A stretch of 50,125 nucleotides of DNA, from the NCBI GenBank assembly GCA_964567835.1, contig CAZMOU010000011.1, positions 1 to 50,125 of the forward strand. Reading direction: 5' to 3'. The notes beneath the pieces are model-generated. The model had not been told where the DNA came from and ran no database searches. It worked only from the letters and a program-made list of their open reading frames with translations. Positions 16,996 through 38,629 of this stretch are shown here, piece after piece; positions within the stretch are counted from its first letter, which is position 1; every line of letters begins with the position of its first letter. Origin of the DNA: an uncultured Chitinophaga sp. Its GTDB lineage: Bacteria; Planctomycetota; Planctomycetia; Pirellulales; UBA1268. The translations under genes were made by a program, and so were the position numbers.

Positions 16996-17010
16996 ACCAG
17001 CCGGACCGCG

Positions 17011-17886: not shown

Positions 17887-17891
17887 CCGGC

Positions 17892-18873: not shown

Positions 18874-20634
18874 GTGACCCAGACGAACACCCCCGGCGGC
18901 TCCGGTCGGGTCGGGGAGGTGCGGCGGTGGAGTTCGATCCCGGTCGTGGCGGCAGCGCTCCTGCTGGCCGGTGCGACGGCACGGTCCGACGAGCCGACCG
19001 CGGCCCCGGCGGCCGACGTGGCCGATGGTCAGGCCGACCTCGACGCCGCCGTCGACGCCAAACTGGGCATCAAGTCGATCGACGACTTCGAGAAGGTGCT
19101 CGAACTCGTGCGCGCGGCGCTCCGCAAGGGACTCGACGAACCGTCGCGCAAGTTCGCCAACGATCTCTACACGGGCACGCTCGTGGACCGGGCGGCGATG
19201 ATCACCGACGCGCTGTTCGAGGGGGGCGACGCCGCGCGGCAATGGGAGCGTCTCCGGGCGTTCGCCCTCCGCGACCTCGGCGAGGCGGTGCAGCGCGACG
19301 ACACGCTCGCGGCGGCCCAGGTGATGATCGCCCGGCTCGAGTCGCTGCCGGGTGGCGACCGCAAGCGTGCCCGCGAGGCGGCGACGCGGGCGGTGGACAT
19401 CGGCGGTGACGACCCGCTCCAGACCGCCCAGGCGCACGTCGTCCTCGGGAATCTCGCCGAGGCGGACGCGGCCGACCGGCGCGGCCACTACGACAAGGCG
19501 GTGGAACTGGCCCCCCGCGACGTCGACGTGCGCCGGACCCGCGGCGTGTTCCTGATGAGCGAGGGGGACATCGACGGCGCCATCGCCGACATCGACGTGG
19601 CGATCGAGGAGGAGCCGGACGACCTCCGCCTGCGGGAGATGCGCGGGCTCGCGCTGTTGGTCGGGCAGCGGACCGACGAGGCCCGGGCCACCTTCGACGA
19701 GGCCCTCGAGATGGCCCCCGACTCCTCCGACCTGCTCTTCCAGCGGGCCAGGCTGCTCGCCTCGGTCGGCGACACGGACCGGGCCATGGCCGATCTCGAC
19801 AAGGCGATCGGGCTCGCCCCCGAGACGGCCGAACCGCTCGTCCTGCGGGCCCGCCTCCATCAGATGGCAGGCGACGGGGACGCGGCTCGCGCCGACGTGG
19901 AACGCGTGCTGGGCCGGCAGCCCGACCATGCCGCGGCGCTCGAGTTGCGCGGCCTCCTGGCCGCCGACCGGTCGGACTACCCCGCGGCGATCGGCGACTT
20001 CCGGCGGCTCGTGCGGCAGCAACCCGACGACGCCGTGCTCGTGTCGCAACTCGGGCTCCTCTACCTCGCGGACAAGCAGCCGCGCGAGGCGATCCGACGC
20101 TTCGACCGGGCGCTCGAGATCGATCCCGGGCTGCTGGTGGCCCTGCGCGGCCGCAGCGACGCCGAGATCACCGTCGGTGACCACGCCGCGGCGCTCGTGG
20201 ATCTGGAGAAGGCGATGGAGGTCGACCCGGAGGACGAGTCGGTGCTCAACAACCTCGCCTGGCTCCTCTCCACGAGCCCCGAGGACGCGCTCCGCGACGG
20301 CAAGCGCGCGGTGGGCATCGCGGCGAAGGCGTGCGAGTTGTCGGAGTGGAAGAAGCCGCACATCATCAGCACGCTCGCCGCGGCGCACGCCGAGAGTGGT
20401 GATTTCGAGCAGGCGCGGAAGTTCAGCCGTCAGGCGGTGGACGGCAGCGAACCGACGTCGGAGGTGCGCGGCCAACTCGAGAGCGAACTGGCGAGCTACG
20501 AGAACGGCAAGCCCTGGCGCGAGCGGCAGACCGTCGGCGACGACGGCACGGCGGGGGCCCCCGAGCCGGCCGGGAAACCGGTCGCGCCGCCGCCGCGACC
20601 CTCCTCCCCGTCGCGCCGGCCGTTCGACGAGTAG
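18874..20634 (+). CDS. secreted tetratricopeptide (TPR) repeat protein
   Basis: 586 aa. GTG 18874 with AGGAGG 7 nt upstream. Signal peptide, then repeated TPR-like units (e.g. GDTDRAMADLDKAIGLAPE, HAAALVDLEKAMEVDPE). Confidence 0.8.
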   Translation: MTQTNTPGGSGRVGEVRRWSSIPVVAAALLLAGATARSDEPTAAPAADVADGQADLDAAVDAKLGIKSIDDFEKVLELVRAALRKGLDEPSRKFANDLYTGTLVDRAAMITDALFEGGDAARQWERLRAFALRDLGEAVQRDDTLAAAQVMIARLESLPGGDRKRAREAATRAVDIGGDDPLQTAQAHVVLGNLAEADAADRRGHYDKAVELAPRDVDVRRTRGVFLMSEGDIDGAIADIDVAIEEEPDDLRLREMRGLALLVGQRTDEARATFDEALEMAPDSSDLLFQRARLLASVGDTDRAMADLDKAIGLAPETAEPLVLRARLHQMAGDGDAARADVERVLGRQPDHAAALELRGLLAADRSDYPAAIGDFRRLVRQQPDDAVLVSQLGLLYLADKQPREAIRRFDRALEIDPGLLVALRGRSDAEITVGDHAAALVDLEKAMEVDPEDESVLNNLAWLLSTSPEDALRDGKRAVGIAAKACELSEWKKPHIISTLAAAHAESGDFEQARKFSRQAVDGSEPTSEVRGQLESELASYENGKPWRERQTVGDDGTAGAPEPAGKPVAPPPRPSSPSRRPFDE

Positions 20635-21882: not shown

Positions 21883-23292
21883 TCAGTTCCCGCCCGTCGA
21901 CCGATCGACGGGAATCGTGGCGTCGATGCCCCAGGTCTCGGCCAGGGCCTCACCCCGCCACGCGAGGATCAGGTCCATCATGCCGCGGACGAGCGCCTTG
22001 GCGGCCGGCCTGTCGTGGAGCCAGGCGGCGAACTCCTCGCCATGCTCGCCGTAGGCGTCACGCAGCCACGTCGGGGCCTCGGTGAGCAACCAGGCCCGGA
22101 ACAGCAGCCACCGGGGGTCCTCCTCGCCGTACACCTCGCGGGCGACCCAGCAGAAGCCGCCGTTCGGGTTGAAGCCGTAGGGGAGACGGTTGAAGGTCTG
22201 GACGGTCTGCACGCCGAGCAGCGACACGCCCATGATCTGCTCGAAGGGAGCGGTGATCTTCTCGATCACGCCGTTGAAGGCGATCCAGGGGTCCTGGGCG
22301 ATGAACACGCGGTCGCCGGGGAGGATCTGGTAGTTGGTCGCCGTCGCCCCTCCGCGCATGATCGCCTGGATGTCGACCGGCAGCACCTGGTCGCAGCCCA
22401 CGCCCGAAGGGGCGGGTCGGGCGATCCAGATCTCCTTGCTCGACAGCTTGGAAAGACCGTTGATCTGCGCGATGGCGTCGAGCACGGTCTCGTTGCCCGT
22501 GACCGGGAAGCGCGCCACGTTGTCGCCCTGGCCCGCCCCCTCGGTGATCACGTAGTAGACCTTCGAGTTGTAGCTGAAGACGTCGACGCTCACCATCGGG
22601 GCGTCGAGGTAGTCGGAGAGCCGCTCCTCGACCGCCTTCTTCGCCTCGTCGAGCGTCATGCCGGTGACGTAGACGCTGCCGTAGGTGCCGAGGTTGATCG
22701 TGCCGTCGGGGCCGACGAGATGCTCGCCGGCGATCTGCTGCTGGCCGGCCGCCTGGGCGAGCGTGAGGGAGACCTGCGGATCGCGGAGGACGCGTTTCAG
22801 GTGGCGGAACACCGCGTCCTGCGCCTCGTCGAGCGACCGGCCGCCGACCGCGACCTTGCCGTAGGAGGGACCCAGGTCGAGGAGGCCGCCCGGCTCGACC
22901 ACGTAGATGCCGTTGATCGGTTGCTCGAGGAGCGTGCCCTCGACGATCACCTGGAGCGAGTCGAAGGACTGGATCCGGAAAGGCGGCTTCGGAACGATGC
23001 GCAGGGCATCGATGAGGAGGATGTCCGGGGGCTCGATGACGTAGGGCGGCAGCGTCACCTTGGCGAGTTCCTTCGCCGGCATGGTGGCCGGGTCGGCGTC
23101 GCACTTGGCGCTCAGCGCGACCTGCTGGGTGGTGGTCCGTTGCGGCCGGCCGTAGATGTTGCATCCGGTGGCGCAGCAGGTCGCCAGGGCGGCGAGGAGA
23201 CACGCGCGGACGACGCCGGTCGCCGGGGACCGCTCCCAGGAGGTTCGCGGGGCCGCTCCGCGATCCGGGCCAAGGTCGTCAAGAATGGGCAT
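21883..23292 (-). CDS. Wza-like polysaccharide export lipoprotein (Poly_export + SLBB) with extra C-terminal tail
   Basis: 469 aa from ATG (CAT 23290-23292). Lipoprotein signal LLAALATCCATGC. Poly_export-like PPYVIEPPDILLIDAL and GPDGTINLG segments, then a 90-aa tail. The ORF-track extension to 23649 was rejected. Confidence 0.8.
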   Translation of the reverse strand: MPILDDLGPDRGAAPRTSWERSPATGVVRACLLAALATCCATGCNIYGRPQRTTTQQVALSAKCDADPATMPAKELAKVTLPPYVIEPPDILLIDALRIVPKPPFRIQSFDSLQVIVEGTLLEQPINGIYVVEPGGLLDLGPSYGKVAVGGRSLDEAQDAVFRHLKRVLRDPQVSLTLAQAAGQQQIAGEHLVGPDGTINLGTYGSVYVTGMTLDEAKKAVEERLSDYLDAPMVSVDVFSYNSKVYYVITEGAGQGDNVARFPVTGNETVLDAIAQINGLSKLSSKEIWIARPAPSGVGCDQVLPVDIQAIMRGGATATNYQILPGDRVFIAQDPWIAFNGVIEKITAPFEQIMGVSLLGVQTVQTFNRLPYGFNPNGGFCWVAREVYGEEDPRWLLFRAWLLTEAPTWLRDAYGEHGEEFAAWLHDRPAAKALVRGMMDLILAWRGEALAETWGIDATIPVDRSTGGN

Positions 23293-23594
23293 GCGTCGAT
23301 CCTCCCAGCCGGTAGACTCGGTGTCATCGGAATCATCGGCAGTGGGAGTCGGTAAACTTTGCCGGTTTTTCGGGCCTTGCGGCCGGGAACGCGGGCGGGG
23401 TGGCCGGGGTCCACGGGGCAATCCGGGCAAGGAGGCGAACCCCACGCTCCGCGGACGGTGGTGCGCCGGCCACGCGGCCAGCCGCGCGGAGGTTTTTCGC
23501 TGGACTTGCCGCAAGCCCTTCCACCCCACCGGCCATGGGGGACGATGGAGAACCCGGACGAGGACTTCACGGTCCGTCAGCACCGCGTCGACGC

Positions 23595-25538
23595 ATGACA
23601 CCCAAGCCTCCCGCCCACGACCCCCCGGACGCCTCGCTCCGCGCCCCACGGAGGATCGACCTGCGCGTGCTGGGAAGGCACCTGGCGGCCATGGCCGCCG
23701 CCCACGCCGCCATCTTCGTGGTCTCGTGGTTCGTGTCGTTCCTCACGCGGTTCGACTTCCATGTCGACGGCGGGATGCTCGCCATGTTCCACGCCACCGT
23801 CTGGTGGGTGGTCACGGTGAAGACGCTCGTGTTCCTCGTCCAGGGGCAGTTCTCCTGGATGTTCGGCCCGGTGGCGTTCGCCGACGTGGGGAGGCTCGTG
23901 TTCACGACCACCGTGGCGGCGCTGGTGCTGTTCGTCGCGGAGTTGGTCCGCGAGGCGCTCGGCTGGGGCAACGGCGTGTCGCGGCTGCCCCGCAGCGTGC
24001 TCCTCATCGACTGGGCCGCGAGCATCATGCTCGTCGGCGCGGTCCGCGCGCTGCCCCGGACGATCCGCGAGGAACTGCGTCCCCTCTTCGCCCGTCGGGA
24101 CGTGCGTCTGGCGCTCGTCGTGGGAGCCACCCCCGCCGGGGAGCTCGTGGCGCGGAACCTGCTCGCGAACGCCTCCCGGCCCTACGCGATCCCGGGGTTC
24201 ATCGAGTCCAACGTCCTCCTCCGGGGGACGCGCATCGCGGGAATCCCGGTGCTCGGCACCGTGGCGGAGGCCGCGACGATCCTGGCCCGCGTGCCCGTCG
24301 ACGAGTTGATCATCGTGTCGGGGGCCGTCGCGGGGGGCGATCTGCGGAAACTGCTCGGGACCGCCACGGCGGCCGGCGTGACGGTGCGCGTCATCCCCTC
24401 GATCGACGAGCTGCTCTCCCCAGACGAGCCGGGCGGTTCGCCGTCGCGCCTGCGTCCGGTGGAACTGCACGACCTGCTGCGCCGCGAGCCGGTGACGCTC
24501 GACGACGCGTCGATCCGCGACCTGGTCGCGGGGAAGGTCCTCCTCGTGACCGGAGGGGGGGGCTCCATCGGGTCGGAGATCTGCCGCCAGGTGCTCCGGT
24601 TCGGGCCGGCACGCGTCGTGGTGGTCGACCACGGCGAGAACGCCCTGTTCCACCTCGAGCAGGAGCTCGCCCGGCACGGCCACCGCGACGCCTTCACGAC
24701 GCTCGTGGCCGATGTCCGCGACGAGGCCTCGATGCGCCGCCTCTTCGCCGAGCATCGCCCGGCGCTCGTGTTCCACGCCGCGGCCCACAAGCACGTGCCG
24801 ATGATGGAGGCGAGCCCCGCGGAGGCGATCAAGAACAACTGCCTCGCCACCGCGATGCTGGCCCGGCTCGCCGACGAGGCGGGAGTCGGCACGTTCGTCA
24901 TGATCTCGACCGACAAGGCGGTCAATCCCACGAGCGTGATGGGATGCACCAAGCTGGTCGCGGAGCGATTCGTGCGGGCCTTCGCCGCGCGCGCCCGGAC
25001 GACCTTCGTGATCGTCCGGTTCGGCAACGTCCTCGGCAGCAACGGCAGCGTCGTGCCCACGTTCGAGGATCAGATCCGGCACGGCGGCCCGGTCACCGTG
25101 ACCCACCCCGACATCACGCGTTTCTTCATGACGATCCCCGAGGCTGCCCAGCTCGTCATCCAGGCCGCGGCGATGGGCAAGGGGGGGGAGACCTTCGTCC
25201 TCGACATGGGGCAGCGGGTGCGGATCGTCGATCTGGCCCGCGACGTGATCGCCCTGTCGGGGCGGACGGAGGAGGAGATCGGCATCGTGTTCACCGGTCT
25301 GCGCCCCGGGGAGAAGCTGTTCGAGGAGCTGACGCTCCCCGGTGAGCAGCGACTGCGGACGGCGCATCCGAAGGTGACCTGCGTGCTCGGCCCCGCCGAG
25401 GACGAGGCCGCGGTCGAGCGCTTGCTCGAGGAGCTGCGTGGCATCCTCGACCGGTCCCCCGCGGAGATCCGCGCCGCGCTCGCCCGGCTGGTCAAGGAGT
25501 ACTCGACGGTGCCGGCGCCGTCGCCCCGGCCGGATTGA
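23595..25538 (+). CDS. CapD/PglF/WbpM-type membrane-anchored UDP-HexNAc 4,6-dehydratase (paralog 2)
   Basis: 647 aa from ATG 23595 (ATG 23535 also possible). TM helices plus the motifs VLLVTGGGGSIGSEICRQV, STDKAVNPTSVMGCTK, RFGNVLGSNGSV and LRPGEKLFEEL. Confidence 0.85.
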   Translation: MTPKPPAHDPPDASLRAPRRIDLRVLGRHLAAMAAAHAAIFVVSWFVSFLTRFDFHVDGGMLAMFHATVWWVVTVKTLVFLVQGQFSWMFGPVAFADVGRLVFTTTVAALVLFVAELVREALGWGNGVSRLPRSVLLIDWAASIMLVGAVRALPRTIREELRPLFARRDVRLALVVGATPAGELVARNLLANASRPYAIPGFIESNVLLRGTRIAGIPVLGTVAEAATILARVPVDELIIVSGAVAGGDLRKLLGTATAAGVTVRVIPSIDELLSPDEPGGSPSRLRPVELHDLLRREPVTLDDASIRDLVAGKVLLVTGGGGSIGSEICRQVLRFGPARVVVVDHGENALFHLEQELARHGHRDAFTTLVADVRDEASMRRLFAEHRPALVFHAAAHKHVPMMEASPAEAIKNNCLATAMLARLADEAGVGTFVMISTDKAVNPTSVMGCTKLVAERFVRAFAARARTTFVIVRFGNVLGSNGSVVPTFEDQIRHGGPVTVTHPDITRFFMTIPEAAQLVIQAAAMGKGGETFVLDMGQRVRIVDLARDVIALSGRTEEEIGIVFTGLRPGEKLFEELTLPGEQRLRTAHPKVTCVLGPAEDEAAVERLLEELRGILDRSPAEIRAALARLVKEYSTVPAPSPRPD

Positions 25539-25650
25539 GGCGACCGGCGCGGCTCGCGCGGAGTGCCGCCGGGCGCCGGTCCCGCCGCTACAATGCCAGG
25601 GTGGGCACCAGGGCGGTGCCGCTGCGGCGGGTACGGGGCACGAGGGCGAG

Positions 25651-26889
25651 ATGGCGACTCTCCGCGGCGCTGGCGATGGAGGTCCCGGCGGGACGCGCGT
25701 GCCCTTCGTGCGCCCCGACCTCCCCGATTTCGAGCTCCTCCGCCCCCACTTCGAGTCGATCGTCGCCACCGGGCAACTCACCAAGGGGCCGTACCTGCGC
25801 CGCTTGGAGGAGGCGGTCGCCGAGCACCTCGGCGTCCGTCACGCCGTGGCCGTGAGCAGCTGCACGGTGGGGCTGCTCCTCGTGCACAGGGCGCTTTCGA
25901 CGCTCGCGGGGCGGTGCGACGCGGAAGGCTGCGACATCGGTGCGCTGCGTCCCGTCGCCGCGGGCGACGAGGTCGTCCTCCCGGGCTTCACCTTCCTCGC
26001 CGCCCCCGCGGCGGTCCAGTGGAGCGGCCTCCGGCCGCGGTTCATCGACGTCGACGAGGCCTCGACCAACGTCAGCGTGCCGCTCGTGGCCGGCGCGATC
26101 TCGCCCCGCACCGCCGCGATCGCCGCCTGCCACAACTTCGGCAACCCCTGCGACGTCGCCGGTCTGGCGGCCCTGGCCGCGGAGCACCGCCTGCCGCTGG
26201 TCATCGATGCCGCGCACGGCTTCGGCTCCCGGCAGGGGGGGCGTCCGGTCGGTGCCGGAGCGACGGCGCAGGTCTTCAGCCTCTCCCCCACGAAGCTCCT
26301 CGTCGCCGGCGAAGGGGGGATCGTGGCCACCGATTTCGACTGCATCGCCGACGCGGTGCGCGTGGGTCGGGAGTACGGCAACGACGGCTCCTACGACGCG
26401 CGCTTCGCGGGGCTCAACGGCCGGATGCCGGAGACGTGCGCCGCGACCGCCTGGGTGGGGTTGGGGGCGCTCGATCGCATCGCCGCCTCGCGGCGGGCGA
26501 TCGCCGCCGGGTACCGGGAGGGGCTTTCCGGGCTTCCGGGCATCGGCTTCGTGTCGGAGGCGCCGGGGAGCCAGTCGAGCCACAAGGACTTCTCCATCAC
26601 CGTCGATCCCGAGGCCTTCGGGGCCGATCGCGACGCCGTCCGCGCCGCGCTCGACGCCGGCGGCATCGACACCCGCGCCTACTGGGACCCCCCCTGCCAC
26701 CGCCAGCGGGCCTACCGCTGGGCGCACGACGGTCACCCGCCGCTGGTGGTCACCGACCGGCTCGCCGCCCGCAGTCTCTCCCTGCCGATCGGCCGCCAGG
26801 TGGACGACGCGGTGATCCGGCGGGTGTGCCGCACGATCGAGGCGGTGGCGGAGGCGAGTCCGGCCCCCCGTGGAGCGGCCGTCCCGTGA
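25651..26889 (+). CDS. DegT/DnrJ/EryC1/StrS (PglE-like) PLP-dependent sugar aminotransferase
   Basis: 412 aa from ATG 25651. GDEVVLPGFTFLA motif and PLP-lysine context FSLSPTKLLVAGEGG. Confidence 0.85.
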   Translation: MATLRGAGDGGPGGTRVPFVRPDLPDFELLRPHFESIVATGQLTKGPYLRRLEEAVAEHLGVRHAVAVSSCTVGLLLVHRALSTLAGRCDAEGCDIGALRPVAAGDEVVLPGFTFLAAPAAVQWSGLRPRFIDVDEASTNVSVPLVAGAISPRTAAIAACHNFGNPCDVAGLAALAAEHRLPLVIDAAHGFGSRQGGRPVGAGATAQVFSLSPTKLLVAGEGGIVATDFDCIADAVRVGREYGNDGSYDARFAGLNGRMPETCAATAWVGLGALDRIAASRRAIAAGYREGLSGLPGIGFVSEAPGSQSSHKDFSITVDPEAFGADRDAVRAALDAGGIDTRAYWDPPCHRQRAYRWAHDGHPPLVVTDRLAARSLSLPIGRQVDDAVIRRVCRTIEAVAEASPAPRGAAVP

Positions 26890-27554
26890 AGTCCGAGGAA
26901 GGCGGAGCGGCGCGTGCCGCGGGTCGTTCCCTCTACGTGAACGTGGTGAAACGCTGCGGCGACGCCCTGGTCGCCGCCCTGCTCCTGCTGCTCCTCCTGC
27001 CGGTGCTCCTGCTGGTGTGGGCGGCGGTGGTGGCGGTGCTCGGCACGCCGGCCTTCTATTTCGACACGCGGGCGGGGCGGCACGGGCGTCCGATCGTGGT
27101 GGGGAAGTTCCGTTCGATGCGCGATGCCCGCCGGGCCGACGGGTCGCCGCTTCCCGACGCCGAGCGGCTGGGGGCGTTCGGGCGTTTTCTCCGCCGGACG
27201 AGCCTCGACGAGCTCCCCCAGCTCGTGAGCGTGCTCGTGGGGGACATGAGCCTCGTCGGGCCCCGTCCGCTCCCCGTCCGCTACGTCGCCAGGTACAATG
27301 CCCGACAGGCGACGCGTCTCCACGTGCTGCCCGGACTCACCGGCCTGGCGCAGGTCTGCGGCAGGAACGGCCTCGGTTGGCCGGAGCGCCTCGAACTCGA
27401 CGCCACGTATGTCGATGCGATGGGGCGGTGGTACGCCATGTTCGTCGACCTGGGAATCCTGGCCGCCACGTTCTTCGTCGTCGTCTGGCAGGCCTGCAGC
27501 GGCCGCGGCATCTCCGGCAGCGGGGCGGCGACCATGGAGGAGTTCGACCCGTGA
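26886..27554 (+). CDS. small phosphoglycosyl transferase (bacterial sugar transferase, PglC/WbaP C-terminal type)
   Basis: 222 aa. GTG 26886 overlaps the upstream stop (GTGA). One N-terminal helix, then FRSM, SLDELPQL and GDMSLVGPRP motifs. Confidence 0.85.
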   Translation: MKSEEGGAARAAGRSLYVNVVKRCGDALVAALLLLLLLPVLLLVWAAVVAVLGTPAFYFDTRAGRHGRPIVVGKFRSMRDARRADGSPLPDAERLGAFGRFLRRTSLDELPQLVSVLVGDMSLVGPRPLPVRYVARYNARQATRLHVLPGLTGLAQVCGRNGLGWPERLELDATYVDAMGRWYAMFVDLGILAATFFVVVWQACSGRGISGSGAATMEEFDP

Positions 27555-27880
27555 GCGGACCGACCGAGGATCGCGACAACGCAGGTCCGACTCCGGCACG
27601 CGTGCTCGCCGCCGTCCGCGGGGCGATCGCTGTGGTCTACCATGACACGGCGCGGCCGCCGCGCGACGTGGTCCCCTCCGCCCTGCTGGGATCGGACCTC
27701 GGCCTCGACTCGCTCGACCTGGCACAGGTGGTGGTGCTCCTCGAACGCGAGCTGGGGGCCGATCCCTTCCGCGATCCCCCCGCCGGCGGCACCCGTCCGC
27801 CGATCCGCACCGTGGACGATCTCGTGGCCGTCTACCACGGGTCGCTCCGCGCGGAGGGGACTCCCGACCGACCGACCTGA
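27551..27880 (+). CDS. acyl/peptidyl carrier protein
   Basis: 109 aa. GTG 27551 overlaps the upstream stop (GTGA). Phosphopantetheine-site context LGSDLGLDSLDLAQVVVLLE. Confidence 0.7.
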   Translation: MSGPTEDRDNAGPTPARVLAAVRGAIAVVYHDTARPPRDVVPSALLGSDLGLDSLDLAQVVVLLERELGADPFRDPPAGGTRPPIRTVDDLVAVYHGSLRAEGTPDRPT

Positions 27881-27922
27881 CTCCCGCTCCCGCGACCCGT
27901 TCGCCCCTCCCGGACCCCTGCC

Positions 27923-29281
27923 ATGGACGCCGCGTCCCCAGCCCTGTTCGCCAGTGCTCCGAGCCGACTGGCGGCGTCGATCGACGCCATCGCGGGCATC
28001 GACCCCGGGCGCGTGGCGATCGTCGTCGCCGCGGGGGATGCCGGCCGGAGGGAAGTGCCGTACGCACGGCTGGCGGGCGCGATCGCCGCGCTCGAGGCGG
28101 GCCTCGCCGCGGCCCGTCCGCTCGGCGTCGTGGCCCGGGCCAGGTCGCTCGAGTCGCTGGTGGCGATCGTGGCGGCCTGCGGGAGGATTCCGGTGCCGCT
28201 GGCGCTCGTCGCCGACGACTCGCGCGATCTGGTCGGGGAGTTGCGCGGGTGGATCGAGGTCGGTGACGACCTCGCCGTCCCCTCCGGCGGCGCGGCGCAC
28301 GCGCCCGGTCCGTTCGACGCGGGGGCCGCACGCGTGGTGGTGGCCACCTCCGGCACCAGCGGGCCGCCGAAGCTCGTCGAGCATTCCTGGGACTCGCTCC
28401 TCGCCTCGGCGAGACTGGCGGAGCAGTGGCACGATCGGGGCTGGCTCCTCGTCTACGACGCCACGCGTTGGGCCGGCACGCAGGTCTGGCTCCAGGCGCT
28501 CCTCACCGGCGGACGCGTCGTCGTGCCGGCGTCGCGGGATCCCGATCGGGTCGCCCGCGCCGTGGTGGAGGAGGGGGTGACGATCCTGCCCGCCACGCCC
28601 ACGCTCCTGCGGCGCGTGATCGCGGCCGGCGACAGGGAGCTGGTCTCGAGGATGCGGCTCGACCGGATCACGCTCGGCGGGGAGGCCGCCGACGGGCAAC
28701 TGCTCGAGCAGACCGCGCTGCTCTTCCCCGGGGCGCGGGTCACGCACGTGTACGCCACGACCGAGCTGGGCGAGGTCTTCCGGGTCGGTGACGGGCGTGC
28801 CGGGTTCCCGGCGGACTGGATCGGGCGGACGCTCCCGGGGGGTGTCCGCCTGTCGATGCGCCGCGACGGCGAGCTGCTCGTGCAGCTGTCGCGCGACACC
28901 GCGGAGGTGGCGACGGGCGATCTCGTGGAGCGGCGCGGCGACCGCTACGAGTTCGCCGGGCGCCGCGGCGACGTGATCGTGGTCGGGGGCGCGAAGGTCT
29001 TCCCCAAGCGCGTGGAGGAGGTGCTGCGCGGGGTCCCCGGCGTCGCCGATGCCCGCGTCTACGGCCTCCCCAACGCCATCACCGGCGAGATCGTGGCGGC
29101 CCAGATCGTGGCGGCCGATCCCCTCCCCGCCGGGACGACGCCGGAGTCGATCCGCGCCGCAGCCCTCGCCGCCTGCCGCGCGGGCCTCGAGGCGCACGCC
29201 GTGCCGCGGATCCTCGACTTCACGCGCAAGCTGTTCACGAACCCCTCCGGCAAGGTGTCGCGGCGACCGGTCGGAACCTGA
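27923..29281 (+). CDS. AMP-dependent synthetase/ligase (adenylate-forming enzyme)
   Basis: 452 aa. AMP-binding core VVATSGTSGPPK, then YATTELG, GDLVERRGDRYEFAGRRGD and C-terminal PSGKV. Confidence 0.8.
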   Translation: MDAASPALFASAPSRLAASIDAIAGIDPGRVAIVVAAGDAGRREVPYARLAGAIAALEAGLAAARPLGVVARARSLESLVAIVAACGRIPVPLALVADDSRDLVGELRGWIEVGDDLAVPSGGAAHAPGPFDAGAARVVVATSGTSGPPKLVEHSWDSLLASARLAEQWHDRGWLLVYDATRWAGTQVWLQALLTGGRVVVPASRDPDRVARAVVEEGVTILPATPTLLRRVIAAGDRELVSRMRLDRITLGGEAADGQLLEQTALLFPGARVTHVYATTELGEVFRVGDGRAGFPADWIGRTLPGGVRLSMRRDGELLVQLSRDTAEVATGDLVERRGDRYEFAGRRGDVIVVGGAKVFPKRVEEVLRGVPGVADARVYGLPNAITGEIVAAQIVAADPLPAGTTPESIRAAALAACRAGLEAHAVPRILDFTRKLFTNPSGKVSRRPVGT

Positions 29282-29291
29282 CGGCCACTGC

Positions 29292-30110
29292 ATGCCCATG
29301 ACACGAGCGCCGGAGGATCGGTCGAGTGAAGAGGGATCGCCCGCCGGGGAGTGGTCCTTCACGAGCGTGGTGTCCGGCGGCTCGCGGGGACTGGGGCTCG
29401 CCACGGTGGAGCGGCTGCTCGCCCGCGGCGACCGGGTCGCCACCTTCTCGCGGCGCGGGTCGAAGGGGCTCGAGGAGCTCTCCGCGCGGCATCCGGGCCG
29501 ACTCCTCCACCGTCACCTCGACGCCGCTGACCCGACGGCCCTGCGCCGGTTCGTGGCGGAGGCGGGAGAGGCCTTCGGCCGCATCGATCACTGCGTGGCC
29601 AACGCCGCCGTCGCCACGGAGGGGGTGCTGGCGACGATGTCCGATGCGGACATCGCGGGAATGCTCGCCGTCAACCTCCAGGGGGCGATCGTCCTGGTGC
29701 GCGAGTGCGTCCGCGGGTTCCTCGCCAGACCACCGGCGCCGGCGGGTGCCGGCCGCGCCACGGGGGCGCCTTCGGTGGTCGTCGTGTCGAGCGTGGTGGC
29801 GGCCCGCGGCAGTCCCGGCCTGGCCGTCTACGCCGCCACGAAGGCGGGGCTCGAGGGATTCGCCCGCAGTCTGGCACGCGAACTGGGGCCGCGCGGAATC
29901 CGCGTCAACGCCCTGGCCCCCGGCTTTCTGGAAACCGATCTCTCCGCCACGCTGCCCGAGCAGGACCGGGCGCGGATCGTGCGGCGCACGCCGCTGGGGC
30001 GGCTCGGCGCGCCTGCCGACGTCGTGGGGGCGATCGACTTCCTCACCGGTCCGGGAGCCGCCTTCCTCACCGGCACCACGCTCACGATCGACGGCGGCGG
30101 GGCGACCTAG
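29292..30110 (+). CDS. short-chain dehydrogenase/reductase (FabG-like)
   Basis: 272 aa from ATG 29292. SGGSRGLG dinucleotide motif, NAAV, catalytic YAATKAG. Confidence 0.85.
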   Translation: MPMTRAPEDRSSEEGSPAGEWSFTSVVSGGSRGLGLATVERLLARGDRVATFSRRGSKGLEELSARHPGRLLHRHLDAADPTALRRFVAEAGEAFGRIDHCVANAAVATEGVLATMSDADIAGMLAVNLQGAIVLVRECVRGFLARPPAPAGAGRATGAPSVVVVSSVVAARGSPGLAVYAATKAGLEGFARSLARELGPRGIRVNALAPGFLETDLSATLPEQDRARIVRRTPLGRLGAPADVVGAIDFLTGPGAAFLTGTTLTIDGGGAT

Positions 30111-30197
30111 GGGCGGCGGGTGCCGGACGATGGGGTAGACTTCCATCCACGCCCCATCCGGCCGAGTTCCTCCACGTCCCGTCCCGTCGCGCCAACG

Positions 30198-30857
30198 ATG
30201 AGCGATCGATCCGGTGCCGACGCCCCGCCCTGTCGCGTGCTCATCGTGGGGGCGGGTGGTTTCGGCCGCGAAATCCGCTGGTGGGCCAGGGATGCCTGGC
30301 AGGGGACACGCACGGTCATCGCCGGCTTCCTCGACGCGGACCCGTCCCGCGGCCGCGACGATCTGCCCATCCTCGGCGATCCCGACACCTACCGACCGGG
30401 CCCCGACGAAGCCTGCCTGCTCGCGGTGGGAATCCCGCTGGTGCGCCGCAGACTGGCGGAGGGCCTCCTCTCCCGCGGCGCCAGGTTCGTCTCGCTCGTC
30501 CATCCCACCGCCATCGTGGCGCCGAGCGCCCGCATCGCACCGGGGGCGGTCATCTGCCCCTCGGCGGTGGTGAGCGACGCCGCCCGGATCGGTCCCTGTG
30601 CGCTCGTGAACTACCACGCCTCGGTGGCCCATGACGCCGCCGTGGGGGCCTTCGCCGTCCTCTCGCCGTACGCGGCCCTGGGCGGCGGGGCGTGCGTGGG
30701 GGAGGACGCGTTCCTGGGGCTCCACGCGTCGGTCGGTCCCGGGCGGACGCTCGGCGACCGCAGCAAGGTGAGTGCGAACTCCTGCGCCCTCGCCGACGTG
30801 CCCCCCGATTCGCTCGTCCATGGTGTGCCCGGCCGCGTGACGAGGATCGTTTCCTGA
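30198..30857 (+). CDS. NeuD/PglD-family hexapeptide-repeat sugar acyltransferase
   Basis: 219 aa from ATG 30198. Rossmann-like VLIVGAGGFGREI followed by left-handed-helix repeats (IAPGAVICPSAVVSDAARIGPCALVN...). Confidence 0.8.
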   Translation: MSDRSGADAPPCRVLIVGAGGFGREIRWWARDAWQGTRTVIAGFLDADPSRGRDDLPILGDPDTYRPGPDEACLLAVGIPLVRRRLAEGLLSRGARFVSLVHPTAIVAPSARIAPGAVICPSAVVSDAARIGPCALVNYHASVAHDAAVGAFAVLSPYAALGGGACVGEDAFLGLHASVGPGRTLGDRSKVSANSCALADVPPDSLVHGVPGRVTRIVS

Positions 30858-30906
30858 CCGTCCCCCCGCGCGGGCCTCGGTCGCTTGGCCACCGTGAGTC
30901 CCTGTC

Positions 30907-32049
30907 ATGGCTCCCATCCGGGTCGCGGCCCACGTCGATGTGCGCTACACCACGCGCCGGCCGACCGGCGTGGACAAGCACATCGCGCGCATGGTGCACG
31001 GGCTCGCCGGGCGGCCCGGTTTCGAGGTGACGGTCGTGGCTCCGCGCGGACAGCTTCCGGGGGGTGACCTCCCGGCGGAGAGCAGCCTCCACGGGCTTCC
31101 CGTCAGGGGTCTGCCACTGTCCAACCGGGCGGGACGGCTGTGGTGGTCCGTCAGCGACCGGCCGCCGATCGACCGCTTCGTGCCGGGGATCGATTGGGTC
31201 TGGTCGCCGCAGGAACTGTGGGCGCCGGGAGGGGGGGCACGGACGGCGGTCACCATCCACGGCGCGACCTACTTCGAGCCCTCCTATCCCCGCGCCGCCT
31301 CGGCGTGGGCCAGGTTCGAGCGGCTGCGGCTGGGCCGATTCCTCGAACGGGTCTGCCGCCGCGCCGATCTCGTCCTCCCTGTCTCGCCCTACCTGGAGCG
31401 CTTCCTCGTCTCCCGTTTCGGCCTCGATCCGGTCCGGTCGGTGGTGGTGGGGAACGGCGTCGACGGGGCGTTCTTCTCCTCCGGGCAGGCGGCGGCCGTG
31501 GACGGGAGCCACGATCCCGACCGGCTCCTCGTCGTGGGGGGACTGAACGACTGGGACGGCGGCGGGCGGGTGCTCGCCTGCGCCGACGAACTCGCGCGCC
31601 GGCTTCCCTCGATGGCCATCGACGTGGTGGGCACCCTCGACGACGCGGCGGTGGTGGCGGCGGCCGCGCGGCGCGCGAACGTGCGGCGTCTCGGCTACCG
31701 TCGCCCCGCCGAACTCGCCGCGATGATGCCGGGGTATCTCGCCCTGCTCTACCTTCCCAACGTGGAATCGTTCGGCATGGTGGCGCTCGAGGCGATGGCC
31801 GCCGCCCTGCCGGTGATCGCCTGCCGGCTCACCGCGGTGCCGGAGACGGCCGGCGACGCGGCCCGGTACGTGGACGAGGAGCGTCCGGCGGCGGTCGTCG
31901 ACGCCGTCGAGGAACTCCGCGACGATCCGAGGCTGCGCGCCTCGATGGTGCGGAGGGGCCGGGAGCGTTCCCGCGGATGGACGTGGGACGCGTGCGTCGA
32001 TCGGCTGGCACGGGCGCTCGCCGCGCCGCAGGCCGGGGGGGGGCCATGA
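30907..32049 (+). CDS. GT-B glycosyltransferase (family 1/4 type)
   Basis: 380 aa. C-terminal EX7E region ESFGMVALEAMAAALPVIA. Confidence 0.8.
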   Translation: MAPIRVAAHVDVRYTTRRPTGVDKHIARMVHGLAGRPGFEVTVVAPRGQLPGGDLPAESSLHGLPVRGLPLSNRAGRLWWSVSDRPPIDRFVPGIDWVWSPQELWAPGGGARTAVTIHGATYFEPSYPRAASAWARFERLRLGRFLERVCRRADLVLPVSPYLERFLVSRFGLDPVRSVVVGNGVDGAFFSSGQAAAVDGSHDPDRLLVVGGLNDWDGGGRVLACADELARRLPSMAIDVVGTLDDAAVVAAAARRANVRRLGYRRPAELAAMMPGYLALLYLPNVESFGMVALEAMAAALPVIACRLTAVPETAGDAARYVDEERPAAVVDAVEELRDDPRLRASMVRRGRERSRGWTWDACVDRLARALAAPQAGGGP

Positions 32050-33149
32050 GCGCGGGGGGAAGGGAAAGACTCCGGCGCCTGGTCTTCTGGCAGCCGATCG
32101 TGAGTCCCCACCAGCGGGACTTCCTCGAGGCCGTCGCCGCGGCCTTCGACGGCGAGGTGGTGCTCGCCGCCGAGCGCGGCCTGCCGGCGGAGCGGATCGC
32201 GATGGGGTGGCCTCCGGTGGTCCACCGGTTGGTGCGGGTCGTCGACGCCGCGGCGCCGGAGGCCTTCGAGGGACTGGTGGGGTTCGATCGCCGGGACACG
32301 CTCCACGTGTTCAGCGGGTTCTTCTCCCACCCCGTCGTGTGGAGGGCGTTCCGGCGCCTCGTGCCCTCGGCCGCACGGTTGGCCATGCTCTCCGAGGCGC
32401 CCGAGCAGACGGTCGCCACCGGTTGGTTGAAGCGGTGGCGGGGGCGGATCCTCGTCGATCGGTTCGCGCCGCGGCTCGAGTTCGCCCTCGTCATGGGGGG
32501 GGTGGGCCGGAGGTTCTTCGAGGCGGTCGGATTCCCGGCGCGGAAGATCGTCACGTTCGGGTACTACCTTCCCGCGGCGGCCGATCCCGACGGCGGGGAG
32601 TCGGGCGGGGCCGCGGGGCCGGTCCACTTCCTGGCGGCGGGCCAGTTCATCCGCCGCAAGGGGTTCGACCTCCTCGTCGACGCGCTCGCGGGCCTGCCGG
32701 ACGGCGACTGGCGGTGCACGATCCGCGGGGCCGGCCCGCTGCGAGCGCGGCTCGAGCGCCGGGCCCGGCGGGGGGCGGCGCGCGGGCGGGTCACGTTGCC
32801 GGAGCCGGCGCCGAACGAGGTCCTCCTCGGGGAACTCGCCGGTGCCGACTGGGCCGTCGTCCCCAGTCGCCACGACGGGTGGGGCATGATCGTCAACGAG
32901 GCGCTCGGCGTCGGCACGCCGGTCGTGTGCACGGATGGCTGCGGCGCCGCCGACCTGCTCGACGACCCGGCCGCCGGCGTCGTCGTGCCGGCGGGGGACG
33001 CGGGGGCGCTCGGCGAAGCCTTGTGGCGCTGCCTGGCGGGGGGCAAGATCGGTGCAGGTCGGCGGCGTGCGGTCCGCGCCATCGCCCGGCGTCACGACCC
33101 CTCCGGCGCCGCGGCGACGTTCCTCGAACTCGTCGGGGCCGGCGGGTGA
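32046..33149 (+). CDS. GT-B glycosyltransferase
   Basis: 367 aa. ATG 32046 overlaps the upstream stop (ATGA). C-terminal motif PSRHDGWGMIVNEALGVGTPVV. Confidence 0.7.
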   Translation: MSAGGRERLRRLVFWQPIVSPHQRDFLEAVAAAFDGEVVLAAERGLPAERIAMGWPPVVHRLVRVVDAAAPEAFEGLVGFDRRDTLHVFSGFFSHPVVWRAFRRLVPSAARLAMLSEAPEQTVATGWLKRWRGRILVDRFAPRLEFALVMGGVGRRFFEAVGFPARKIVTFGYYLPAAADPDGGESGGAAGPVHFLAAGQFIRRKGFDLLVDALAGLPDGDWRCTIRGAGPLRARLERRARRGAARGRVTLPEPAPNEVLLGELAGADWAVVPSRHDGWGMIVNEALGVGTPVVCTDGCGAADLLDDPAAGVVVPAGDAGALGEALWRCLAGGKIGAGRRRAVRAIARRHDPSGAAATFLELVGAGG

Positions 33150-33202
33150 CGGTCGGCCCCGCGACGGACGAGTGTCCGCCGTCCCACCCCGCTGGCAGCG
33201 CG

Positions 33203-34450
33203 ATGACCGGACCCGTCCCCCCGCCGCGCGTCCTGCTCGTGTCGAGCACGCTCGACGACGACGGCGGCATCCCCGTGTGCGTCGGGCAACTCGCCGGCGC
33301 CCTGGCCGATCTCGGGATCGACGTCGTCGTCTCCGGACAGTGCACCGGCGAGCCGGCGGCCGCGGTCCGCGCCGTCGCCGGCCATCCGCGCGTGACCGTC
33401 GAGGCGTTCCACGAGCCCTGGTCGCTCGCGGGACAGTGGCGCGCCGCGCGGCGGATGCGCCGGCTGGTCGGTCGTCTGGCGGAGTCGGCCCGGCGCGAGC
33501 GACGCGGTCTGGTGGTCCACCTCCACGGCGTGTGGGTGGCGACGATGACCGCGGCCGCCGCCGCCGGGCGCGAGGCCGGGGCATCGGTCGTGGTCTCCCC
33601 CCACGGCATGCTGCGGCGCGAGGCGTTGCGGAAGAGCCGGTGGCGCAAGATGGCGGTGTGGTGCGGGGGGCTCCGCCGCGAGGTGGCCGCGGCCGAGACG
33701 CTCCATGCGACGAGCCCCGACGAGGCGGAGGATCTCCGCGCGCTGCTTCCCGGGTGCCGGCCGCGCCTGGTGCCGCTCGGCGTCACCCCGCCGGCAGACA
33801 CGGCGCGCCGGCGCGACCCGGCCGCACCGCGCCGTGCCGGCTATCTCGGGCGCATCCTCCCCATCAAGAACCTCGACACCCTGCTGCGGGCCTGGCAGCA
33901 TGCCGCGCCGCCGGGGTGGCGGCTGTCGATCGACGGCCCCGGGACGGAGGCCATGGTCGCCGGCCTCCGCGACCTGGCATGGCGCCTCGGCGTCGGGGAT
34001 CGCGTCGACTTCGGCGGCGCGGTGCCGTTGGCGGCGCTCGGCGACCACTTCTCGACGCTCGATCTCTTCATCCTCCCCTCCCGTTCCGAGGCCTTCGCGC
34101 TGGTGGTGGGCGAGGCCCTGGCGGCGGGCGTGCCGGCGATCGTCACGACGGCGGCACCGTGGGAGGGGGTCGTGGCGCGGGGCTGCGGCTGGAGTGTGCC
34201 ACCGGGAGAACCGGAGCTCGCGCGGGCGATCGCCGAGGCGACGGCGCTCGACCCCGGCGCGCTCGCCGCCCGTGGCCGCGCCGGTCGGGAGTGGGTCCGC
34301 GGCGAGTATTCCTGGCCCCGGATCGCCCGTCGCCATCTCGACGAGCTCTACGGCCACGCCGCCGCCGGCGACGATCGGCCCCTCCTTGTCTCGTCGACGG
34401 CCACAGGCGATGCTGTCGGCAGTTTTCACAGACCCCCGGACATCCCATGA
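33203..34450 (+). CDS. GT-B glycosyltransferase (family 1/4 type)
   Basis: 415 aa from ATG 33203. An alternative GTG 33146 would give a GTGA overlap with the upstream stop. RVLLVSSTLDDDGGIP N-terminus and LPSRSEAFALVVGEALAAGVPAIV. Confidence 0.75.
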   Translation: MTGPVPPPRVLLVSSTLDDDGGIPVCVGQLAGALADLGIDVVVSGQCTGEPAAAVRAVAGHPRVTVEAFHEPWSLAGQWRAARRMRRLVGRLAESARRERRGLVVHLHGVWVATMTAAAAAGREAGASVVVSPHGMLRREALRKSRWRKMAVWCGGLRREVAAAETLHATSPDEAEDLRALLPGCRPRLVPLGVTPPADTARRRDPAAPRRAGYLGRILPIKNLDTLLRAWQHAAPPGWRLSIDGPGTEAMVAGLRDLAWRLGVGDRVDFGGAVPLAALGDHFSTLDLFILPSRSEAFALVVGEALAAGVPAIVTTAAPWEGVVARGCGWSVPPGEPELARAIAEATALDPGALAARGRAGREWVRGEYSWPRIARRHLDELYGHAAAGDDRPLLVSSTATGDAVGSFHRPPDIP

Positions 34451-38585: not shown

Positions 38586-38610
38586 CACGCCCGCGCAGGG
38601 CGCCCGCGCG

Positions 38611-38629
38611 ACCGCCCGCCGGGGGCGGT
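38611..38629 (+). terminator. GC-rich hairpin after the long glycan operon
   Basis: ACCGCCC-GCCGG-GGGCGGT starts 26 nt after the stop at 38585. A second palindromic GGCCGCG/CGCGGCC follows. No U-tract. The next gene starts 104 nt after that stop. Confidence 0.3.

Follow-up and report, generated by a model that had tools for sequence, protein, structure and literature searches.

A Pgl-type starter-sugar locus of a planctomycete containing an ACP-ligase-SDR cassette that may supply a non-acetyl 4-N-acyl group

In the window, that is, the whole 50,125-nucleotide stretch of DNA analysed here, seven co-directional plus-strand ORFs (positions 23595-30857) combine a Pgl-type set of amino-sugar enzymes with an acyl carrier protein (ACP), an adenylate-forming ligase and an SDR, referred to below as the trio. 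The reading that we prefer, and to which we give somewhat better than even standing, is that this locus produces the sugar with which a planctomycete surface polysaccharide begins on its lipid carrier, and that a PglD-like enzyme would place on it a non-acetyl 4-N-acyl group derived from the ligase, ACP and SDR. The starter sugar is most likely of the bacillosamine type, and its 4-amino group would bear an uncommon acyl substituent. The genes of the locus are as follows.

21883-23301, minus strand: Wza-like polysaccharide export protein, divergently transcribed (PF02563, 76.7 bits)
23595-25538, plus strand: membrane-anchored PglF/CapD-type UDP-GlcNAc 4,6-dehydratase, 647 aa (PF02719, 373.6 bits)
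25651-26889, plus strand: DegT-family sugar 4-aminotransferase, DesI-like, 412 aa (PF01041, 276.6 bits)
26886-27554, plus strand: small monotopic PglC-type phosphoglycosyl transferase, 222 aa (PF02397, 164.6 bits)
27551-27880, plus strand: dedicated ACP, 109 aa (PF00550, 22.7 bits against a cut-off of 20.8)
27923-29281, plus strand: short ANL-superfamily adenylate-forming ligase, 452 aa (PF00501 and PF13193)
29292-30110, plus strand: classical FabG-like SDR (ketoreductase), 272 aa (PF13561, 166.7 bits; PF00106)
30120-30857, plus strand: NeuD/PglD-family hexapeptide N-acyltransferase, 245 aa as called (PF17836 PglD_N, 31 bits)
30907-32049, 32046-33149 and 33203-34450, plus strand: three GT4 glycosyltransferases (PF00534, PF13692, PF13439)
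34447-40960, plus strand: remainder of the same-strand array, made up of the next four genes
34447-35286, plus strand: GalU-like nucleotidyltransferase
35283-38585, plus strand: kinase/pyrophosphorylase-like protein, 1100 aa
About 38690-39982, plus strand: further GT4
39986-40960, plus strand: extended-SDR epimerase/reductase

ORF calls and profile matches bore out the seven genes, their sizes and the families that a preliminary description of this DNA had assigned, in the order PglF-like, aminotransferase, PglC-like, ACP, ligase, SDR and PglD-like. The operon structure that it had proposed was likewise recovered: the 4-nt GTGA overlaps at 26886 (aminotransferase and PglC-like genes) and 27551 (pglC and ACP genes) are present in the sequence, and the junctions of -4, -4, 42, 10 and 9 nt within the seven-gene set argue for a single transcript. 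These genes are the start of a same-strand polysaccharide operon of about 17 kb, in which the three-GT4 block (30907-34450) shows 4-nt overlaps at two of its three junctions. The Wza-like gene forms the upstream edge of the locus, and its divergent position is kept in related loci.

The dehydratase, with an N-terminal PF13727 membrane/CoA_binding_3 part, has C. jejuni PglF/WlaL as its best solved relative (5bju, 2e-85) and would convert UDP-GlcNAc into a 4-keto-6-deoxy intermediate. The aminotransferase, whose start we corrected to the ATG at 25651, had been described as a DegT/PglE-type enzyme; the DegT family held, whereas the PglE type did not, the closest solved relative being DesI (2po3, 2.5e-59) and PglE being absent from the 34 solved-structure matches at E <= 1e-20. 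Its score against TIGR04427 DesI (256.9 bits) lies below the cut-off, and by these comparisons it is DesI-like at family level only rather than specifically PglE-like, a placement that does not fix the C4 stereochemistry. It would turn the 4-keto-6-deoxy intermediate into UDP-2-acetamido-4-amino-2,4,6-trideoxyhexose and, since no other aminotransferase was found among the annotated genes of the operon, no free sugar amine apart from its product is seen to come from the locus. For the PglC-like protein, the best full-length solved relatives are Campylobacter PglC 8e37 and 8g1n (about 1e-39).

Catalytic motifs in the locus are intact. The phosphopantetheine site of the ACP is the serine of GLDSLD, and the serine of GL[D/E]SLDxA was invariant in all 67 aligned ACP homologues. 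The ligase, the presumed loader of this ACP, carries the motif TSGTSGPPK and belongs to a family of 966 clusters at E <= 1e-30; TSG (142-144), YA..E (277-281), D333, R347, GG.K (355-358) and K444 were invariant in 28 diverse homologues. Fold neighbours of its AF2 model (pLDDT 92.3) share only about 21% identity with it; salicylate, malonate, o-succinylbenzoate, feruloyl and amino-acid adenylating enzymes are among them, and they do not pinpoint the acid. The SDR scored 176 bits against TIGR01830 (FabG), below the cut-off of 297.75, and in the family profile search no curated family was above its cut-off for ACP, ligase or SDR. In parallel with the sugar branch, the ligase would adenylate a small carboxylic (keto or hydroxy) acid and couple it as a thioester to the phosphopantetheine of the ACP, and the SDR would then reduce the keto group of the carrier-bound acyl or redox-tailor it otherwise. 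There is no ketosynthase in the window, so that FabG-type reduction would need a substrate already bearing a keto group. For the tailored acyl, our best single guess is a short hydroxyacyl group, for example 3-hydroxybutanoyl. The silence of the fold neighbours on the acid, the lack of an above-cut-off curated family and the absence of a ketosynthase were counted against the preferred reading.

The PglD-like protein scored 160.5 against TIGR03570 (cut-off 160.8). It more probably starts at the ATG at 30198, giving 219 aa, than at 30120, because its homologue in the closest locus has 218 aa. PerB (4ea7, 1.4e-23) and VioB (7txp) are its best solved relatives, with PglB/PglD also among the best, and its His171, at least 95% conserved, aligns with the PerB residue changed to Asn in the variant chain 4eaa. 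As a trimeric hexapeptide transferase it would move the acyl group from the ACP to the C4 amine of UDP-4-amino-4,6-dideoxy-HexNAc. It has no extra domain and aligns end to end with the acetyl-CoA-dependent PerB and VioB, so that its sequence carries no donor-switch signal, and it resembles a standard enzyme of the PerB/VioB/PglD type. This point, also counted against the preferred reading, speaks for an alternative that we consider unlikely, in which there are two separate modules: the PglD-like enzyme would acetylate the C4 amine with acetyl-CoA to give ordinary diNAcBac, and a different acyltransferase would attach the acyl of the trio elsewhere on the same polysaccharide, either O-linked or on some other residue. 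Against such a separation, domain annotation of the operon genes revealed no second acyltransferase family anywhere in the operon.

Gene neighbourhoods bear on the same question. In a close set of 40 Planctomycetia loci, whose ligases share 55% identity or more with that of the window, the ACP stood ahead of the ligase in 36/38 loci and the SDR after it in 31/33. Where more than 5 kb was available on each side (14 loci), pglC was present in 13 and pglD, degT and capD in 12 each. The seven-gene order is kept across related Planctomycetia, even where toxin-antitoxin (MNT/HEPN-type) gene pairs or a WecA-like gene are inserted. That pglC and pglD flank the trio in almost every close relative argues against separate modules. 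PglD-like genes also adjoin the trio in other Pirellulales and Verrucomicrobiota (L048, L050, L071 and L084), and in L048 and L071 two of them bracket it, which again argues against separation. One related locus, L033, is without the SDR, a further point against the preferred reading. In one Pirellulales subgroup (ligase 58-60% identical) the trio adjoins genes for a Der GTPase and for a Gfo/Idh/MocA oxidoreductase, and pgl genes are absent within 8 kb, which likewise weighs against that reading.

The trio recurs in at least seven other phyla at ligase identities of 35-45%, with the SDR after the ligase in 32/39 distant loci. All annotated distant loci have a glycan setting, and the adjoining candidate acyltransferase varies. 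On a Haematobacter plasmid the trio adjoins a hexapeptide acyltransferase, a DegT aminotransferase and a dehydratase, and the position of that acyltransferase directly 5' of the ACP gene also tells against separate modules. In Acidobacteriota and Nitrospirota it lies in polysaccharide loci beside a polysaccharide deacetylase. Partners found in other phyla (a deacetylase with a 368-aa protein, or KASIII with an alpha/beta hydrolase) are in favour of separate modules, as is the PglD-like gene being present in only 3 of 26 distant trio loci; trio loci of this kind were counted against the preferred reading. Because most distant loci and one Pirellulales subgroup are without a PglD-like gene, the trio is a general acyl-donor cassette and not a PglD accessory. 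The SDR stays with the ligase even in loci without a 4,6-dehydratase or aminotransferase, which ties it to the acyl chain and not to the sugar. The preliminary description had named a neighbourhood in an unrelated pathway as evidence that would go against it; what we found was mostly favourable to it, the trio lying between pglC and pglD in close Planctomycetia loci and in glycan contexts in all the distant loci annotated.

A different cargo is less probable again. The ligase might load an amino acid, as in D-alanyl carrier systems, or else a dicarboxylic or long fatty acid, and the SDR might act on a sugar nucleotide and not on the acyl chain. An aminoacyl- or lipo-sugar would result, and its C4 might be galacto instead of gluco. 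In favour of this, neither sequence nor fold reveals the ligase substrate, given such diverse adenylating neighbours, the aminotransferase is DesI-like at family level only, and a liposugar has been proposed by the authors describing similar flagellin-island cassettes. However, the top ligase fold neighbours are mostly small-acid enzymes, with the long-chain FadD13 (3r44) ranking 47th, and the SDR is classical FabG-like, not an extended sugar-nucleotide SDR, and keeps to the ligase as described above. That the trio is a lipid or secondary-metabolite cassette merely located in the operon is very improbable: housekeeping genes lie beside it in two Pirellulales loci (L041 and L042), where glycan genes are absent within 8 kb, but its place between pglC and pglD is kept in about 12 of the 14 well-flanked relatives, it shares a 4-nt overlap with pglC, glycan loci of unrelated phyla contain it too, and domain scans of the window ORFs found no PKS, NRPS or lipid-synthesis genes near it.

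The window contains the same four enzyme types as the C. jejuni Pgl pathway, in which PglF, PglE, PglD and PglC yield Und-PP-diNAcBac: a membrane-anchored 4,6-dehydratase, a PLP aminotransferase, a NeuD/PglD-family N-acyltransferase and a small monotopic phosphoglycosyl transferase. It differs in the ACP, ligase and SDR added between pglC and pglD, in an aminotransferase nearer DesI than PglE, and in its context, a Wza-type polysaccharide locus with no oligosaccharyltransferase domain among the scanned window ORFs. The V. cholerae O1 tetronate module RfbK-RfbO (WbeK-O), whose proteins together N-acylate a 4-amino-4,6-dideoxy sugar, is similar to the trio, when compared by description, in its locus-specific ACP, AMP-ligase and dehydrogenase(s), and WbeL/RfbL (471 aa) is of similar size to the window ligase. 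The module reportedly also includes a hexapeptide acyltransferase-like protein. Unlike the window, V. cholerae O1 uses GDP-perosamine in an ABC-transporter-type homopolymer and has extra LuxC/LuxE-type reductase steps. In PMC12208996, RfbL/WbeL is described as the ligase that joins 2,4-dihydroxybutanoate either to CoA or to RfbK, the carrier protein, and WbeL is genetically required for the O1 antigen (PMC3441752), in agreement with the precedent that the preliminary description had named.

In the F. psychrophilum wfpC-wfpG locus, the PglD homologue WfpG is predicted to move an acyl group from the locus-specific ACP WfpD to UDP-Qui2NAc4N, the acyl being tailored by the ketoacyl-ACP reductase WfpF; the product, Qui2NAc4N(3,5-dihydroxyhexanoyl), was established by NMR, and the enzymology is a prediction (PMC6519341). 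There, two ketoacyl-ACP synthases build the acyl chain, whereas in the window, which is without a ketosynthase, the adenylating ligase would load a preformed acid. Genes for an ACP, a 3-oxoacyl-ACP reductase (FabG) and an AMP-dependent synthetase, the same composition as the trio, are also drawn in the flagellin glycosylation islands of Aeromonas group II and Enterobacteriaceae. In Azospirillum brasilense Sp7, where the trio adjoins pseI and flagellin, the ligase is 40% identical to that of the window and the ACP-ligase-SDR order is the same. These islands differ in that they add LuxE/LuxC or KASIII, decorate pseudaminic-acid-type flagellin glycans and are without a PglC/PglD pair around the trio, whose role is described only as 'liposugar'.

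A literature search found no characterised planctomycete example, as the preliminary description had also held. Its interpretation stands for the families, the operon and the V. cholerae precedent, and not for a PglE-specific aminotransferase. The idea is not wholly new, an arrangement of this type having already been proposed for F. psychrophilum wfpD/wfpG (PMC6519341). The acyl-carrier logic has precedents in V. cholerae O1 RfbK/L, F. psychrophilum wfpC-G and the flagellin glycosylation islands. In this planctomycete, the PglC-like transferase would pass the sugar-1-phosphate to undecaprenyl phosphate, and the GT4 enzymes encoded downstream would extend the lipid-linked sugar.

Gene frames in the window were chosen by third-position G+C and by family matches, and the raw ORF lists were crowded with shadow frames because the G+C content is about 73%. 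The preliminary description had reported seven consecutive plus-strand genes of a PglF/aminotransferase/PglC/PglD-type amino-sugar module, interrupted by an acyl carrier protein (ACP), an adenylating enzyme and a short-chain dehydrogenase/reductase (SDR), with 4-nt GTGA overlaps at two junctions. Pfam and NCBIfam matches together with the ORF calls bore out the genes and their families, which are listed below with the export gene that precedes them.

21883-23301, divergent: Wza-like export gene, upstream of the seven genes
23595-25538, plus strand: PglF-like dehydratase (PF02719 Polysacc_synt_2, 373.6 bits) with an N-terminal PF13727 membrane part
25651-26889, plus strand: DegT aminotransferase (PF01041, 276.6 bits)
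26886-27554, plus strand: PglC-like phosphoglycosyl transferase of 222 aa (PF02397 Bac_transf, 164.6 bits)
27551-27880, plus strand: ACP (PF00550, 22.7 bits against a cut-off of 20.8) with the site GLDSLD
27923-29281, plus strand: ANL ligase (PF00501 and PF13193) with the motif TSGTSGPPK
29292-30110, plus strand: classical SDR (PF13561, 166.7 bits; TIGR01830, FabG, 176 bits, under its cut-off)
30120-30857, plus strand: PglD-like acyltransferase (PF17836 PglD_N, 31 bits against 23.4; TIGR03570, 160.5 bits, which is 0.3 bits under the cut-off of 160.8)

The operon junctions measure -4, -4, 42, 10 and 9 nt, both of the -4 junctions being GTGA overlaps as reported. Two gene starts were corrected: the aminotransferase begins at ATG 25651, and the PglD-like gene probably begins at ATG 30198 and encodes 219 aa, because the orthologue in the closest locus has 218 aa. 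A scan of positions 23000-41500 returned no promoter-like sites, with a method that is weak at 73% G+C, and two terminator-like sites, both inside pglC and fewer than shuffles predict, a result that the same base composition makes uninformative.

Hundreds of relatives of the ligase were found at 67-84% identity, and those with a named source come from Planctomycetia or Planctomycetota MAGs. With one genome taken per species, we obtained 372 ligase relatives, and 79 loci were kept and searched with the window proteins. Among the 40 Planctomycetia loci whose ligase is at least 55% identical, the ACP gene precedes the ligase gene in 36 of 38 and the SDR gene follows it in 31 of 33. The well-flanked loci (more than 5 kb on both sides, n=14) contain pglC in 13 cases and pglD, degT and capD in 12 each, with the same gene order as in the window and the Wza-like gene divergent upstream. 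The occurrence of a hexapeptide acyltransferase and a predicted sugar C4 aminotransferase in one operon is also kept in the relatives. The seven-gene set is a real, conserved operon.

In three of the loci (L001-L003) degT and pglC are separated by a WecA-like gene, ligase and SDR by an MNT/HEPN-type pair (NTP_transf_2/NTase_sub_bind), and SDR and pglD by small ORFs, with the module order kept throughout; such insertion without dispersal argues for selection on the neighbourhood. Exceptions were also found: one locus (L033) has no SDR gene, and in two Pirellulales loci with 58-60% ligase identity (L041 and L042) the trio of ACP, ligase and SDR genes adjoins der and a Gfo/Idh/MocA gene, and pgl genes are absent within 8 kb.

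Several further observations were made on these loci. In L001-L003 a NusG-family paralogue, perhaps an antiterminator dedicated to the operon, separates the Wza-like gene from capD; in L001 the extra elements (NusG paralogue, MNT-HEPN-like pair and small ORFs) occupy 4215-4784, 11485-12266 and 13170-13894, and none of them occurs in the window. L041 contains a tandem duplication of about 6.7 kb (3943-10083 and 10687-16821) that takes in the Gfo/Idh/MocA gene and the trio together with an unknown gene of 489 aa; its copies are 99% identical over the 2644 bp compared, which span the trio, and either a true duplication or an error of assembly could account for it. Seven loci with 64-76% ligase identity (L012, L022, L024, L026, L030, L032 and L033) are titled 'Candidatus Kuenenia' despite their Planctomycetia-type locus, and these MAG labels look unreliable.

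Comparison with solved proteins placed the dehydratase closest to C. jejuni PglF/WlaL (5bju, 2e-85), as expected for a predicted PglF-type membrane-bound UDP-GlcNAc 4,6-dehydratase. The 222-aa transferase matched Campylobacter PglC (8e37 and 8g1n, about 1e-39) over its full length and far ahead of WbaP, which identifies it as a putative small monotopic phosphoglycosyl transferase. The aminotransferase had been called PglE-type, and this assignment held at the family level (PF01041) but not at a finer one: among equivalog models DesI came nearest (256.9 bits, cut-off 650), the nearest structure is also DesI (2po3, 2.5e-59), and PglE was absent from the structure matches at E <= 1e-20. Its homology suggests that the amine is likely placed at C4 of a 4-keto-6-deoxy sugar, with gluco and galacto configurations both possible.

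The ACP belongs to a recognisable subfamily with the signature GL[D/E]SLDxA, in which the phosphopantetheine serine is invariant in 67 of 67 sequences and is followed downstream by a DPF motif in the alignment rows displayed. The locus therefore encodes a predicted carrier with the attachment serine that carrier-dependent N-acylation would call for. In the ligase, the key residues of ANL motifs A3, A5, A7, A8 and A10 are invariant, and T142-S143-G144, Y277/A278/E281, D333, R347, G355/G356/K358 and K444 are unchanged in 28 diverse homologues; the predicted structure is a two-domain ANL fold (pLDDT 92.3). With its catalytic motifs intact, this protein is a candidate for the enzyme that loads the ACP. 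A fold search with the model returned PchD, MatB, MenE, feruloyl-CoA synthetase and McbA, mostly small-acid enzymes, and was not decisive on the substrate because these neighbours are about 21% identical and chemically diverse.

No curated NCBIfam family scored above its cut-off for the ACP, the ligase or the SDR. The exosortase A-associated acyl-CoA ligase model TIGR03098 was rejected for the ligase, which matched it with 59.5 bits against a cut-off of 592.35 and in the C-terminal domain only. A HMMER scan of 1.84 billion cluster representatives gave 966 clusters at E <= 1e-30, mostly of 420-470 aa and about 40% identity, so that the ligase family is a large group of short ANL enzymes without a curated model. 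Six longer members (P0136, P0227, P0229, P0162, P0128 and P0262) were inspected for fusions of the ligase to ACP or SDR, and only AMP-binding domains were found in them.

The nearest structures to the PglD-like protein are PerB (4ea7, 1.4e-23), VioB (7txp), Neisseria PglB (4m98), C. jejuni PglD (3bss) and WeeI. In the alignment with PerB, His171 falls on the histidine that is Asn in the variant chain 4eaa and that we take to be the catalytic base His141; across 32 relatives, conservation of His171 is 95% or higher. Comparison with the solved relatives revealed no feature setting this protein apart from acetyl-CoA enzymes, and we know of no NeuD/PglD-family transferase with a biochemically demonstrated acyl-ACP donor. 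The donor specificity of this enzyme, with acyl-ACP as the putative donor, is the weak point of the model.

The most economical reading of the locus would comprise five steps. The ligase would put an acid onto the ACP, the FabG-like SDR would reduce a keto group of the carrier-bound acyl chain, the PglD-like enzyme would move the acyl group to the C4 amine, PglC would commit the sugar to the lipid carrier, and GT4 enzymes would extend the lipid-linked sugar. No ketosynthase was found in the window and, therefore, the keto group would have to arrive with the acid. Our best guess for the acyl group is 3-hydroxybutanoyl derived from acetoacetate, because, among the non-acetyl N-acyl groups of such sugars, 3-hydroxybutanoyl is very common. 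The carrier-activated acyl group on a 4-amino sugar put forward in the preliminary description is thus the best available explanation, with its key transfer step predicted.

The logic of this scheme has precedents. The O-antigen of F. psychrophilum contains Qui2NAc4N(3,5-dihydroxyhexanoyl), and WfpG, a homologue of PglD, has been proposed to accept the acyl group from the locus-encoded ACP WfpD, the acyl group itself being built by two ketosynthases and a ketoreductase (PMC6519341); acyl-ACP use by WfpG is a published prediction. In V. cholerae O1, RfbL/WbeL (471 aa) has been described, in a paper that cites Morona et al., 1995, as the enzyme that joins 2,4-dihydroxybutanoate either to CoA or to the carrier RfbK (PMC12208996), and WbeL is genetically required for the O1 antigen (PMC3441752). 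Transfer from the ACP to the amine is putative in that system too, and its likeness to the present one is drawn from published descriptions. Aeromonas group II flagellin islands encode an ACP, a 3-oxoacyl-ACP reductase and an AMP-dependent synthetase together with LuxE and LuxC (PMC7874193), and enterobacterial flagellin islands have the same gene set (PMC4875605); both have been read only as possible liposugar genes (PMC7874193, PMC4875605), and the Aeromonas islands share with the window a three-gene composition, compared by description only.

These published cases supply precedents for the logic and earlier sightings of the three-gene composition. Biochemical reconstitution of such carrier systems was found neither in the cited papers nor in the literature searched, and a ligase-loaded, ketosynthase-free version inside a PglF/aminotransferase/PglC/PglD module is not described there. 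The statement that no planctomycete example has been characterised agreed with our own search on planctomycetes and bacillosamine; for PglD with acyl carrier protein, the searchable literature likewise contained no characterised example, and nothing was retrieved from it on rfbK and tetronate or for a general description of the gene cluster.

The trio also occurs outside Planctomycetia. At 35-45% ligase identity, the ligase-SDR pair was present in 32 of 39 loci and tblastn detected an ACP upstream in 24 of 38, in records labelled Acidobacteriota, Nitrospirota, Verrucomicrobiota, Alphaproteobacteria, Actinomycetes, Eisenbacteria and Phycisphaerae; the neighbouring genes vary with lineage. As a cassette, the ACP-ligase-SDR trio is portable. 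Four loci (L048, L050, L071 and L084) have PglD-like genes flanking or following it, and on a Haematobacter plasmid a gene for a 151-aa hexapeptide acyltransferase stands immediately before the ACP gene, with DegT and dehydratase genes close by. In Azospirillum brasilense Sp7 the order is pseI, GT, alpha/beta hydrolase, ACP, ligase, SDR, KASIII and flagellin, and in Nitrospira a deacetylase with DUF3473 stands on one side of the trio and a Wzx-type flippase on the other. A further block is shared by eleven loci, ten of which carry the label Acidobacteriota or Terriglobia and one the label Alphaproteobacteria.

L055, L057, L061, L062, L063, L066, L077, L079, L080, L081 and L086, about 6500-11000 in most: polysaccharide deacetylase (PF01522), ACP, ligase, SDR and an unknown 368-aa protein

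In L062, the sole one of these loci annotated with Pfam, the block adjoins GT2, RmlC and RmlD genes. The 368-aa protein gave only a non-significant GNAT hint (E = 0.098). By analogy with NodB and NodA, the block suggests that a glycan amine is deacetylated and then re-acylated. No homologues of the proteins that follow the trio in Acidobacteriota or Nitrospira occur in the window and, for this reason, these candidate partners play no part here.

Tentatively, and with somewhat less than even confidence, we regard the trio as a phylum-spanning plug-in that gives glycans one specific tailored acyl group and is paired interchangeably with varied transferases. Its partners may be PglD-like hexapeptide enzymes in Planctomycetota, Verrucomicrobiota and Alphaproteobacteria, the deacetylase and 368-aa protein in Acidobacteriota, and KASIII and the alpha/beta hydrolase in flagellin islands; the planctomycete PglD-like enzyme may then be a NeuD/PglD-family transferase whose natural donor is acyl-ACP and not acyl-CoA.

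The seven genes head a same-strand array that reaches about 40960 and continues after pglD with three GT4 glycosyltransferases, a GalU-like nucleotidyltransferase, an 1100-aa protein, a fourth GT4 and an extended-SDR epimerase/reductase; an AsnB-type amidotransferase gene and then dnaE lie downstream of its end. Pfam scanning of a set of window ORFs detected no Wzx, Wzy, Wzc or oligosaccharyltransferase domains, the last being the type that PglB contributes when N,N'-diacetylbacillosamine serves in N-linked protein glycosylation, and the window has no Rfam matches or tRNAs.

Other features of the window were noted. The GalU-like and 1100-aa genes (34447-38585) overlap by 4 nt. In the 1100-aa protein, residues 181-509 are similar to the GHMP fucokinase of Fkp (NF009948, 53 bits) and residues 871-989 match UDPGP (PF01704), an architecture that suggests a salvage fusion of sugar-1-kinase and pyrophosphorylase whose domains stand in the opposite order to those of Fkp; it is conserved at 64-88% identity in L004, L008 and L029. 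The amidotransferase at the end of the glycan array (41201-43219; TIGR01536, 398.9 bits; TIGR03108, XrtA/PEP-CTERM, 327.7 bits, under its cut-off) may amidate a uronic acid of the polymer. A second dehydratase of PglF/CapD type (5159-7174; PF02719, 264 bits) and, after it, a WecA/MraY-family GT4 (7041-8324) together span 5159-8324, which is 15 kb upstream of the main locus; in L001, L016, L024 and L047 a WecA-like gene or a second capD-degT pair lies within or beside the main locus. A 1091-aa protein with TPR repeats and a C-terminal CHAT (caspase-like) domain (12812-16087) lies upstream of an ABC transporter pair (16996-18722) and of a TPR protein of 586 aa (18874-20634), a region that looks unrelated to the amino-sugar operon.

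Antigenicity and phage recognition have among their major determinants the non-acetyl N-acyl groups of bacillosamine-type, perosamine-type and nonulosonic sugars; to our knowledge, the supply of these groups is biochemically known only for CoA-dependent cases. The locus is a minimal, tightly packed version, with one ACP, ligase, reductase and transferase beside a Pgl-type pathway, and its reconstitution in vitro seems feasible. If the proposal is true, it would assign a function to a ligase family of about 1000 50%-identity clusters and to unannotated ACP and SDR proteins, and would explain the long-noted 'fatty-acid-like' genes of flagellin glycosylation islands and of the V. cholerae O1 rfb region. 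As far as we know, the envelope glycans of uncultured freshwater Planctomycetia are essentially uncharacterised, and the proposal would establish which sugar primes a surface polysaccharide that is conserved in many of these bacteria.
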